From IMG/VR virus record IMGVR_UViG_3300031603_000004, positions 1-54,848 of that record: 54,848 bases of DNA; one strand, written 5' to 3'. Position numbers: made by a program. How positions within the stretch are numbered: the first letter of the stretch is position 1; each line of letters begins with the position of its first letter. Source of the stretch: a virus (taxonomy: Duplodnaviria; Caudoviricetes). Shown piece after piece: positions 33,001 through 36,000 of the stretch.

Positions 33001-36000
33001 ATAATGTTATCCCCTTACATTATTATATCAAATTATTCTTTTTTTGTCAATAAATTGCATCCCAACAAATTGTAATATAGTTATTATATAAATCATCAGA
33101 ATGAGTATATCCATTTTCTTTAATAAACTCAAAAATTTTTTCAAGAACTTCTTTATCTTCTTTTGGACGAACTGAAATAGAAGCACTAAAATTTCCTGAC
33201 TTAACCTCATTAATAATTCCATCTTGTAATTTTTCTTTAAGAAATAGAACTCTGTCATCATTTATTTTATCTCTATTAATTTGTGTCTTGTGTTTTGCAC
33301 TATTTGCAGATATCATTCACTTGCCCAGCCAAAGAAATAATAAACATGAAAGTTTCTTTTTCCTTTAAATCTTTCACCACGCATTTCTTTTAGTTTAACA
33401 CCTTTTACTTCAACACAACCAGCAGAACCCCATTTATCATCCCAGAATTTTCCTTCTGAGTTTTCCATGCAGTCATACGCAAATTCTATTGGAACTTTTC
33501 CTTTAGGAACTTCTACCATTTGAAAACTGCCCTTTTCGGCTATTGTTCCAGTGTAGCCGCCATGACCTGCATCATATTGTGCATTATCAACTGCTTCTCT
33601 AAAAGCTTCTTTTGCATCTTTATAGATGCCTCTTTTTGTTACAAAAAATTCTGCTGCTCCCATTATTTATCTCCCTCTGTATAAAGTTCTATAGTACTAA
33701 AGATAGCTTCTGCTTCATCATGGTCTTGTAAATCAATGTTATCTTTGTCTATGAATATTTTTTGTGAATGATTGTATTTAGAAAACCATTCATTGTATTT
33801 GTTATTTAATCTTTCTATGTAATCTCTTTCGATAAGAAATTCATTACCCCTATTTCTTTCTTCAATTCTTTTCATTAACATATCAGTAGAACTTTCTAAG
33901 TAAATCATTAAGGTAGGACTTTGTGCTGAGTATAACATTTTATCTAAAAGGTTCATATAAATCCTATACTGTTCTTTTGACATATCTCCATCTTCATATA
34001 GAACTTCTGCAAAAATTGCATCACCATAAATAGATCTATCCATAACAGATCTATCATCAAAATTATTTTGAGCATCATAAATCATTTGAAATCTTTCAGC
34101 AAGAAAATTAACTTGCAATTCAAACGCCCAGTTTTTTTTATCGTTATAGAATTTTTTTAATAGTTCTCCTGTAAAATCAGATGTGAGTTCTTCGTATAAA
34201 TCTACATTTAACCATTCAGAAAGCATTCTACCGAGAGTAGTTTTGCCGCTTCCGATGTTTCCTTCAATTAATATTAATCCCAAAATATCCTTCCCTTTCT
34301 TCTTTTTTCTCTAGCCTTTCTTTCCATTCCTTGACTATTTTTGATAATTCATCCCACGTTTCTTGACCTTGCTTAATTTCCTTTTCAGTTAATCCTTTAT
34401 GTAACATATTTGGAAAATAATCTATAATTTTAATTTTTTTCATTTTCCCTCTTACATTATTATACTCTATTATTCTTTTTTTGTCAATAAAAAAAGACCA
34501 GAAAATTTCTGGTCTTAAATGGAGCATCTGGGAATCGAACCCAGGTTTTTATACCTACTCAATCTTGTTTGTTAAATGCGTTTAAAGATTGTAACTTCAA
34601 TATAAATCGAAACCTGTTATGCCCCGTTTATTCCCTCTTTTATCTCATCTACTGTTTTATATTCCAGTCCATTGAAATCAATACTGCTCATATCGTTTTC
34701 CATTTGCCATTCCATAAAAAAATCAAATTGCTGTTTAGTTGGTTTTATTTCACTGTACTTTATGAATCTGTTATTGGTCATTTTAAGCCAATTTTTCTTC
34801 TCTAATTCTCTTTCATCAAAACCAAGTTTATCAGCTAATGTAATATGTCCCATGTTTCCACAAATATAAAAGTGTCCTGCAGGGTCAATCCATCCATTAA
34901 CAGAATCACCAATTTGACCAATTTTTATAGGAGCTTTGTCTTCTGTAATTCTTTCCTTAACAAAATCATCAACAATCTTTCTTGCTACTTTTTTTTCTTC
35001 TACTTCTATAAATGCTCTTGCTACTTCTTTTTTATCTTCTGCTTCTACTTTTTTCATTTGTATAAATAAACTATCAAAAACTTCATCTATATTATGATCT
35101 GAAATTTCACATAAAAATGTTATTTCTTTTAATAACTCAAGTTTTTTCTTCTCAACTTGAATTCCAGCTTTCGTTGAATATTCTGAATTTGATATTCCAT
35201 CCCCATCACCATTCCTAAGTGACCTAATCATAGTATTTCTTATTCTTACATCATAACCAATGTAGTTTATATAAAATTCTATATATCTTACTTTCTTTCT
35301 ATTAAACATAGTATCTACAGTTTTTCCGGAATAAGAGTCTTCAACTCCATCAAGACCACCATTTCTGGAATCTCCATCAAGTTTCATTCTTCCCTCAACT
35401 AAATCAAGTGCTTGTTTATCAGTCATTCCAAGACCTTCTTTGGCAACACGAAAAGAATGAGCACAAGAACCTTCTTCCCAAAGATCCCTGATTGTTCTTG
35501 TCATATTTTCGCCAGTAGTCCAGAAACAAAAAGAACCAACTTTTTCTATTTCATCCATAACTATTTCCCCTTAAATAATTATATCAAATTATTCTTTTTT
35601 TGTCAAGACATTTCCATATCTTCAACTATTTCATCAAAGCGCTCGATAAATTCAGCCCAAGCTTCCAAGTTCATATTGATACCATTCTTCCCAGGCTTCA
35701 TTTCACCTGTCTCTCTGTCTTTGTATTGTTTTCTAATTGAAACATAGGTTGTTCCATTGTATTCTGATTTGTCAATTTTAATATCTTCATTAATGTAGAC
35801 CATTATATACTCCTTAAAGTATATATGACATTAAGAAGTCCTCGCTGGGAATCGGACCCAGAAGCGTCGGTTTTGCAAACCGCGACATTTGCCATTCTGT
35901 CACAAGGACATATTAAGGGGGCTAGACGCATCTAAATTCCGCTAGGATTTAGAATTTCTGTATTGATAGCTTTTTAGTTGCTGTATGCGTCTAATGGGAG

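Follow-up and report, generated by a model that had tools for sequence, protein, structure and literature searches.

The DNA analyzed here, IMG/VR virus record IMGVR_UViG_3300031603_000004 (the window), is a 54.8-kb marine-metagenome fragment that represents about 23% of the virus genome by CheckV estimate. On its minus strand, at 34625-34520, lies a 106-nt gene that is a tag-less mini-transfer-messenger RNA (mini-tmRNA): the tRNA-like domain (TLD) of tmRNA, in which a hairpin closes helix 2. It stands at the end of a transcription unit that runs from a predicted promoter (35606-35578) through an ORF (35558-34617) and the mini-tmRNA to a predicted terminator. The coordinates of these features are collected in Table 1.

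A tRNA-like domain of tmRNA without a tag

We read the layout of the RNA from its sequence and predicted fold. In a pair-by-pair check, all 35 of its 35 pairs were standard. The layout has an energy of -23.2 kcal/mol, compared with -24.7 kcal/mol for the unconstrained minimum free energy (MFE) structure, and the RNA folds more stably than its own shuffles (z-score, -2.59). As in standard tmRNA, the T-loop conforms to the pattern UUCRANU and the D-loop to GGNUUCGA. Helix 2 consists of two parts, 2a and 2b, separated by an internal loop. Helix 2b is part of a 35-nt enlargement of the arm, which is an insertion relative to the family model R1 described below.

Only 43 nt separate the two strands of helix 2a. 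Within the mini-tmRNA we found no pseudoknot-forming part, no tag called by ARAGORN, and no tag-bearing mRNA-like domain, and there is nothing on which translation could resume. The apical loop opens one short frame (GCA UUU AAC AAA CAA GAU UGA) that would encode AFNKQD, and its stop falls inside helix 2b. This frame is absent in eight of 13 long members of the family, the remaining frames span 1-8 codons, and none among the 13 ends like a degradation tag; its occurrence in the window is probably due to chance. From what is established for tmRNA, the mini-tmRNA would keep all that the TLD offers to alanyl-tRNA synthetase, SmpB, and EF-Tu.

The identification rests on two covariance models. When the Rfam tmRNA model RF00023 was fitted globally, it matched 34517-34625 over model positions 1-374 with 42 bits (E 4.6e-17 for this record), compared with 22 bits for the phage's own tRNA-Ala; the RNA thus has the ends of a tmRNA and lacks its middle. 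We also built a model, R1, from an alignment (A3) of 51 other short phage elements, leaving out both the window element and the TLD-only element of Mycobacterium phage DS6A. R1 matched the mini-tmRNA over model positions 1-77 with 62.4 bits (E 9.5e-13) and a single 35-nt insertion in the apical arm; the DS6A element scored 55.8 bits and the window tRNA-Ala 31.7 bits. Standard detectors were silent: ARAGORN called 23 tRNAs in the window and Rfam at its gathering score 21, and neither reported anything at the locus. In a local Rfam search of 34400-34750 at E values up to 10, tmRNA models matched the T-arm only, and the matches at the terminator were due to chance.

An earlier reading, made from the sequence only, had proposed a tmRNA reduced to its TLD. 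The end-to-end fits to RF00023 and R1 agree with this, and the RNA is no tRNA and no permuted tmRNA. The tmRNA-type ends, G3:U70, A73, stemless D-loop, and T-arm named in that reading are all present; the two-part helix 2 closing an 18-nt loop recurs in the MFE and centroid folds; pseudoknots and a tag ORF are missing as it said, the short GCA frame being no family feature; and a 10-pair hairpin with a T-run does follow the RNA. Of the checks it suggested with ARAGORN or Infernal, the global RF00023 fit and R1 recognized the gene, and ARAGORN and Rfam at the gathering score did not.

Several other RNA classes were tried and rejected. A tRNA-Ala (RF00005) is contradicted by the lack of an RF00005 or ARAGORN call here, the unpaired D-region, and the 18-nt apical loop. 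For a permuted, two-piece tmRNA (RF04321), the gene order is standard, and RF04321 matches the T-arm only, with 11 bits. The mitochondrial tmRNA model RF02544 gave no match in the local search of 34400-34750, in which two lower-scoring overlapping matches, of families belonging to one clan, go unlisted and unnamed. A full standard tmRNA would require an mRNA-like domain with a resume codon, tag frame, and flanking pseudoknots, and the RNA has none of these.

Nucleotide searches returned little at this locus. A BLAST search against isolate phages gave a single match, a 27-nt stretch of the T-arm. The 3' 23-mer of the mini-tmRNA had 0 matches in genome contigs, and the window-type pattern had 0 in metagenome contigs. 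A 181-nt contig from a second sample spans the mini-tmRNA without differences.

Table 1. Features of the mini-tmRNA, its transcription unit, and a candidate CCA-adding enzyme (coordinates in the window; nt, nucleotide of the RNA).
Feature	Coordinates	Strand	Basis or remark
Whole mini-tmRNA gene, TLD only, no encoded CCA	34520..34625	-	RF00023 global fit, R1, pair check
Acceptor 5' strand GGGGCAU, nt 1-7	34619..34625	-	Pairs with 34521-34527, G3:U70 included
Stemless D-loop AACAGGUUUCGA, 12 nt, nt 8-19, ending GGUUUCGA	34607..34618	-	tmRNA-type motif GGNUUCGA
Helix 2a 5' strand UUUAUAUU, nt 20-27	34599..34606	-	Pairs with 34548-34555; homologous family helix covaries
Helix 2b 5' strand CAAUCUU, nt 35-41	34585..34591	-	In MFE and centroid folds
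A-rich apical loop UAAACGCAUUUAACAAAC, 18 nt, nt 42-59	34567..34584	-	Six-codon GCA frame begins inside
Helix 2b 3' strand AAGAUUG, nt 60-66	34560..34566	-	Fold and pair check
Helix 2a 3' strand GGUAUAAA, nt 71-78	34548..34555	-	Pair check
Linker AAC, helix 2a to T-arm, nt 79-81	34545..34547	-	3-nt linker in 98/103 family members
T-arm CUGGG-UUCGAUU-CCCAG, nt 82-98	34528..34544	-	Fold and R1 match
Acceptor 3' strand AUGCUCC and unpaired discriminator A73, nt 99-106	34520..34527	-	Pair check
Predicted intrinsic terminator hairpin, 10 pairs, then T-run	34494..34516	-	
Upstream ORF, 313 aa	34617..35558	-	ORF list
Predicted sigma-70-type promoter TTGACA-17-TATAAT, unit head	35578..35606	-	Hexamer matches 12/12
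Next copy of predicted promoter, start of downstream unit	34459..34487	-	
PolyA_pol-family (CCA-adding-type) nucleotidyltransferase domain	52631..52975	-	PF01743, 110.9 bits; ORF ~52295-53059

A family of short phage elements with an invariant alanine identity

To place the mini-tmRNA, contigs were searched with patterns that join the tmRNA D-loop and T-loop motifs by a short spacer. With a spacer of 45-75 nt, viral contigs yielded 11 matches; with 15-45 nt, they yielded at least 120, and 185,579 species genomes yielded 23, mostly on contigs of metagenome-assembled genomes. The 131 loci assembled in this way comprise 103 distinct sequences, which range from 59 to 115 nt and cluster in length at 63-67 and 75-81 nt, and all 103 have one layout in common. 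After correction of the 5' register, the 7-bp acceptor stem is fully paired in 102 of them. Helix 2a (4-10 bp) begins right after UUCGA in every member, two of which start it 1 nt later. Acceptor pairs 5-7 and T-stem pairs 1-3, which the pattern leaves free, are found as all four Watson-Crick types and are nonstandard in only four of 618 cells.

Compensatory changes are strong in all three helices of the family. They were counted in alignment A3, which takes in the 51 of the 103 sequences that are 74-81 nt long and have a D-loop of 12 nt; alignments A1 and A2, in which 24 sequences with 11- or 13-nt D-loops are out of 5' register, were not used for counts. In A3, 97.3% of cells pair, compared with 65.1% in shuffles; the covariation score, 0.14 in shuffles, is 0.76, which none of 500 shuffles reached; and both sides change in 14 of 20 pairs. 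Shifting the partner columns by 1-3 lowers pairing to 43-56%.

The alanine identity elements do not vary. A pattern with any base other than T at position 70 matched 0 viral contigs, compared with at least 120 with T. Replacing A73 in the pattern gave six matches; R1 scores all six at only 24-37 bits, similar to an ordinary tRNA, and one of these is a tRNA-Ser according to ARAGORN. Position 70 is thus always U, and there is no convincing family member without A73. Because the G3:U70 wobble is kept without exception beside pairs that change freely, alanine charging appears to be under selection in the family. On this comparative evidence, the invariance of U70 and A73 argues that an uncharged SmpB sponge is not the whole story.

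Five mini-tmRNA-bearing records estimated to be complete (G005, G006, G007, G008, and G010) hold no above-cut-off tmRNA match longer than 83 nt. A search for SmpB in five mini-tmRNA-bearing records, four of the complete ones and the incomplete G009, found none. With no SmpB in the records searched, the RNA would have to use the SmpB of the host.

The closest relatives of the window RNA bear on its origin. Four distinct sequences have its acceptor stem: L142, L177/L179, and L178, which are 78 nt long and have the exact 12-nt D-loop of the window, and L122, which is 76 nt long with a D-loop that differs at two positions. Helix 2a is different, and compensated, in each of the four. The sequence-only reading would have been undone by relatives pointing to a recent deletion of a full tmRNA; with nearest relatives that are 78-nt mini-tmRNAs carrying compensated helix 2a changes, we see an enlarged mini-tmRNA and not such a deletion. 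By comparison with these relatives, the window copy is a standard mini-tmRNA that has gained a 7-bp helix with an 18-nt loop in place of the small apical hairpin. Searches of viral and metagenome contigs returned no close relative of the arm in its enlarged form.

The genomic surroundings of the family are diverse. The largest neighbor cluster is common to six of 103 loci, and recurrent neighbors with Pfam names are prohead protease, capsid, portal, DnaB, ERF, and glycosyltransferase genes, with no integrases among them. No tRNA gene accompanies 69 of the 103 fetched loci, and 24 have one within 1 kb. At one locus, L098, the mini-tmRNA (2780-2858) is flanked by the prohead protease and major capsid genes, all on one strand, within a late structural module (538-4093); neighbor clusters of this type take in up to five other loci each. 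Two GC-rich 92-nt mini-tmRNAs, L012 4730-4821 and L018 9515-9606, have an identical inner arm and different, compensating helix 2a strands, a pattern in their sequences that hints at inner arms being conserved or exchanged as units. ARAGORN gave no call at four other short-element loci. At L074 5905-6228 (minus strand), it reported a 324-nt "tmRNA", tag "not identified", which reuses the 3' end of an 80-nt mini-tmRNA but does not begin with the 5' end of a tmRNA. The call is probably false, and calls like it could hide mini-tmRNAs in annotations.

Such elements have been described before. "Mycobacterium phage DS6A (TLD only)" appears in a list by Hudson, Lau, and Williams 2014 (PMC4131195) and, by the same paper, on the tmRNA Website as tmID 11587. 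A DS6A-like TLD molecule strongly inhibits tmRNA in Escherichia coli, perhaps by titrating SmpB, as PMC4131195 and PMC11915505 state in citing Mao et al. 2009. According to its report, the 2025 tmRNA database contains 79 phage sequences from RefSeq viruses and nine sequences of the form "standard, no CDS" (CDS, coding sequence), names DS6A beside CDS-less plastid and mitochondrial forms, and among viruses searched only those in RefSeq (PMC11915505). Two phage tmRNA surveys state that they used ARAGORN (PMC9004378, PMC7162821). The sequence-only reading had named mitochondria as the place of mRNA-less versions; these are indeed known, but the direct phage precedent, DS6A (PMC4131195, PMC11915505), was overlooked. 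With a TLD-only phage tmRNA already published, together with both of its functional ideas, an SmpB sponge and tag-free rescue, that reading overrated the novelty of the find. In full-text literature covering few subscription journals, we found no paper on a broad phage family of TLD-only tmRNAs.

We located the DS6A element at JN698994.1 28478-28560, where the GenBank record has no annotation; it scores 43.2 bits on RF00023. The two RNAs are alike in being phage-borne, in their 7-bp acceptor, G3:U70, A73, and stemless D-loop with helix 2a directly after it, in their short apical hairpin, 3-nt linker, and T-arm, and in the absence of a tag frame. They differ in size (106 nt for the window RNA with its 35-nt apical enlargement of a 7-bp helix and 18-nt loop, about 80-83 nt for DS6A) and in the D-loop, which has GGUUUCGA in the window RNA and GGUGGUCGA in DS6A. 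The window RNA is AT-rich, comes from a marine, tRNA-rich, and apparently large phage, and is otherwise unrelated in sequence to DS6A.

Full-length tmRNA (RF00023; 345-348 nt in G002, a distant relative of this phage) has the same ends, acceptor, D-loop motif, helix 2a with linker, and T-arm, but the window RNA lacks its pseudoknots, resume codon, and tag frame and is about 240 nt shorter. Engineered TLD fragments (Gutmann et al. 2003; Bessho et al. 2007), made for co-crystal and ribosome studies with SmpB, reportedly bind SmpB; they are cut similarly, with an acceptor, D-loop, T-arm, and loop-closed helix 2a, whereas the window RNA is natural, belongs to a type apparently under selection in phages, and has a longer arm. 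The CDS-less organelle tmRNAs, of jakobid and oomycete mitochondria (RF02544) and the ~65-bp Mallomonadaceae plastid genes, likewise have a chargeable domain and no tag, but as described in PMC11915505 they are usually permuted and served by a nucleus-encoded SmpB, whereas the window RNA has the standard order and is carried by a phage. Judged by its layout and its relatives, the window RNA belongs to the known TLD-only type of phage tmRNA and is ordinary save for an unusually long inner arm.

Transcription unit and phage context

The TAA stop of the 313-aa ORF coincides with nucleotides 7-9 of the mini-tmRNA (overlap 34617-34625, minus strand), so that 5' processing of a co-transcript would strip the ORF of its stop codon. 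Across the family, an upstream ORF overlaps the mini-tmRNA in 10 of the 94 loci that have one on the same strand and in a further 12 stops short of it by 0-10 nt; stop-codon coupling is therefore no family rule. The ORF has no Pfam family and no usable Atlas match, and its PHROG is of function unknown. Two distant homologs (36-38% identity), L020 and L021, lie in large phage contigs with no mini-tmRNA behind either. One reading of the overlap, which we think very unlikely, is that the 5'-cut co-transcript leaves the ORF without a stop and that the alanyl-mini-tmRNA finishes the protein with one or repeated alanines instead of the host tag. Expression of the neighboring protein would then depend on the mini-tmRNA out-competing host tmRNA. 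In a bolder variant, the enlarged A-rich loop would itself be a pseudoknot-free minimal message, AFNKQD.

The promoter at the head of this unit has many counterparts. Allowing at most one mismatch, TTGACA-N17-TATAAT has 24 sites in the window against 1.38 expected, 23 of them on the minus strand. The promoter-like repeat is highly conserved (TTGACAAAAAAAGAATAAT-N4-TATAAT) and heads most transcription units; its sites include 803-831, 33022-33050, 34459-34487, 35578-35606, and 53353-53381. Metagenome contigs over the repeat show piled-up depth and many joints, as repeats do.

The phage carries 23 tRNA genes by ARAGORN. CCA is encoded by none of the 23 and not by the mini-tmRNA, and the PolyA_pol-family enzyme, judging from its domain, is the likely supplier of the missing CCA end; L020 holds a homolog of it with 50% identity. 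Genes near the mini-tmRNA include a phosphoribosyl pyrophosphate synthetase, a deoxynucleoside kinase, and an Rnl2-type RNA ligase (36441-37403) whose only matches, at about 30% identity, are to T4-like phages. We found no SmpB and no tyrosine integrase in the window.

Other features of the window stand apart from the mini-tmRNA. An ORF for an HNH endonuclease (36067-36390, minus strand; PHROG 10822, E 1.6e-19) touches tRNA-Ile (35994-36069) and is placed between the Rnl2-type ligase and the tRNA-Ile/tRNA-Cys pair. A 178-aa ORF (32466-33002, minus strand) has Hint and intein-splicing matches (Intein_splicing, 36.7 bits; PT-HINT, 34.8 bits) and, going by these domains, could be a free-standing or split intein piece. 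Odd tRNA-like genes lie at 44329-44397, 45471-45542, and 41532-41602 (minus strand): one is an ARAGORN 'tRNA-???' with the two-base anticodon aa, and two were found by Rfam only (42 and 30.3 bits), not by ARAGORN.

Proposed function and its alternatives

Starting from the observed anatomy, family membership, covariation, and invariant alanine identity, we propose that the charged mini-tmRNA and host tmRNA compete for SmpB and stalled ribosomes and that ssrA tagging is thereby suppressed, a proposal to which we give about an even chance. Host RNA polymerase would transcribe the mini-tmRNA together with the upstream ORF from the promoter at 35606-35578 and stop at the terminator. The mini-tmRNA would be cut out of the transcript in tRNA fashion, receive its CCA end from the phage's own or the host nucleotidyltransferase, and be charged by host alanyl-tRNA synthetase through G3:U70 and A73. 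It would then take the place of host tmRNA as a ligand of host SmpB (and EF-Tu). With neither resume codon nor tag frame, it would compete with host tmRNA for SmpB and stalled ribosomes, and tagging of infection-time products with the ensuing proteolysis would thereby be suppressed.

Several points weigh against this proposal. The RF00023 score of 42 bits is below the Rfam gathering cut-off of 47 bits. Our patterns required G1-G4, the CUCCA end, and the motifs of both the D-loop and the T-loop, and therefore sampled no family members that depart from these. With only some 23% of the genome in the window, the remainder may contain a full tmRNA or an SmpB gene, and G002 does carry a full tmRNA with the tag ADENLALAA (145.6 bits; L022 1501-1845 or G002 108175-108522, on a 189-kb contig, 345 nt by ARAGORN and 348 nt by RF00023). 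That tmRNA lies away from the 313-aa ORF homolog of its record and has ends unlike those of the window mini-tmRNA; in the other record with a homolog of this ORF, we found no full tmRNA. The proposed mechanism also leaves the 35-nt enlargement of the arm without explanation. Finally, the reported inhibition of tmRNA by a TLD did not need charging, as cited in PMC4131195. Inhibition without charging, set beside a conserved charging identity, suggests that titration is not all the RNA does and would be equally compatible with rescue without a tag.

Rescue of this kind is possible, though we regard it as rather doubtful. The charged mini-tmRNA and SmpB would enter a stalled ribosome and add one alanine, and the ribosome would be freed otherwise, through drop-off, peptidyl-tRNA hydrolase, or an Arf-type factor, the benefit being recycling without marking for degradation. 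Peptidyl-alanyl-TLD without a stop codon is not known to have a release step, which counts against the idea, and no Arf-type factor was seen in the window, where no search was aimed at one. In its favor, the invariance of U70 and A73 suggests that charging is needed, and the 23 tRNAs, the CCA-adding-type enzyme, and the Rnl2-type ligase look like a translation-maintaining module. CDS-less organelle tmRNAs also co-occur with SmpB and are thought, according to PMC11915505, to help with incomplete mRNAs, but the sole reported experiment, as cited in PMC4131195, shows inhibition. That same experiment, in which a TLD-like molecule inhibited tmRNA whether chargeable or not, fits an RNA that only sequesters SmpB, charged or uncharged, as does the absence of an SmpB gene from the window and the five records searched. 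We nevertheless consider pure sequestration improbable: a G:U wobble in at least 120 matches with 0 alternatives, beside neighboring acceptor pairs that are free to change, would be unexpected if charging were irrelevant.

The remaining explanations have far less in their favor. A decoy or shield against host defenses that sense or cut tmRNA or tRNA-like RNAs, such as systems with SmpB-like domains or tRNA/tmRNA nucleases, seems very improbable to us. Defense systems with SmpB-like domains have been predicted (PMC11090510), a phage anti-CRISPR is described as employing tRNA and tmRNA fragments (PMC11662646), and the RNA ligase and CCA-adding enzyme of the window are typical answers to attack on tRNA; yet no defense or anti-defense gene is linked to mini-tmRNAs, the largest neighbor family reaches only six of 103 loci, and the Pfam-named recurrent neighbors are structural or replication genes. 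There is likewise only a slim chance that the RNA is part of a larger system with a coding piece or full tmRNA outside the window, in the other 77% of the genome. That the window is a fragment and that G002 has a full tmRNA speak for this, but the order of the gene is standard, its match to RF04321 is confined to the T-arm, the hairpin that closes helix 2 leaves no free strand for a second piece, and the five complete-estimated records bearing mini-tmRNAs lack a longer tmRNA match. A minimal true tmRNA, in which the 18-nt loop would be a tiny mRNA-like domain that resumes at GCA and adds AFNKQD before UGA, is highly unlikely. Its six-codon frame does start in the A-rich loop, but most long members lack the frame, none has one resembling a degradation tag, ARAGORN reports no tag, no pseudoknot is present, and the stop is buried in helix 2b. 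Least credible to us is a functionless relic, either a decayed tmRNA or an attachment-site remnant of integration into host ssrA. Phages often integrate into tmRNA genes and carry away 3' ends, as noted in PMC10865867 and PMC9004378, but here both halves are present and covarying, all 35 pairs are intact, the RNA has a promoter and terminator of its own, and integrases are missing from the window and from the annotated recurrent neighbors.

For the window alone the gain is modest, one further member that stands out through the enlargement of its arm, a clean unit from promoter to terminator, and an RNA that overlaps the upstream stop codon. A type that the published record searched here knows from a single phage, DS6A, and a few CDS-less sequences is represented by at least 103 distinct forms on viral contigs, and their invariant alanine identity is a concrete and testable sign that charging is important. 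Bacteria rescue ribosomes and control the quality of translation mainly through trans-translation, and a phage RNA that diverts this path, as in the competition with host tmRNA proposed here, would reprogramme host translation by compact means and without a protein.

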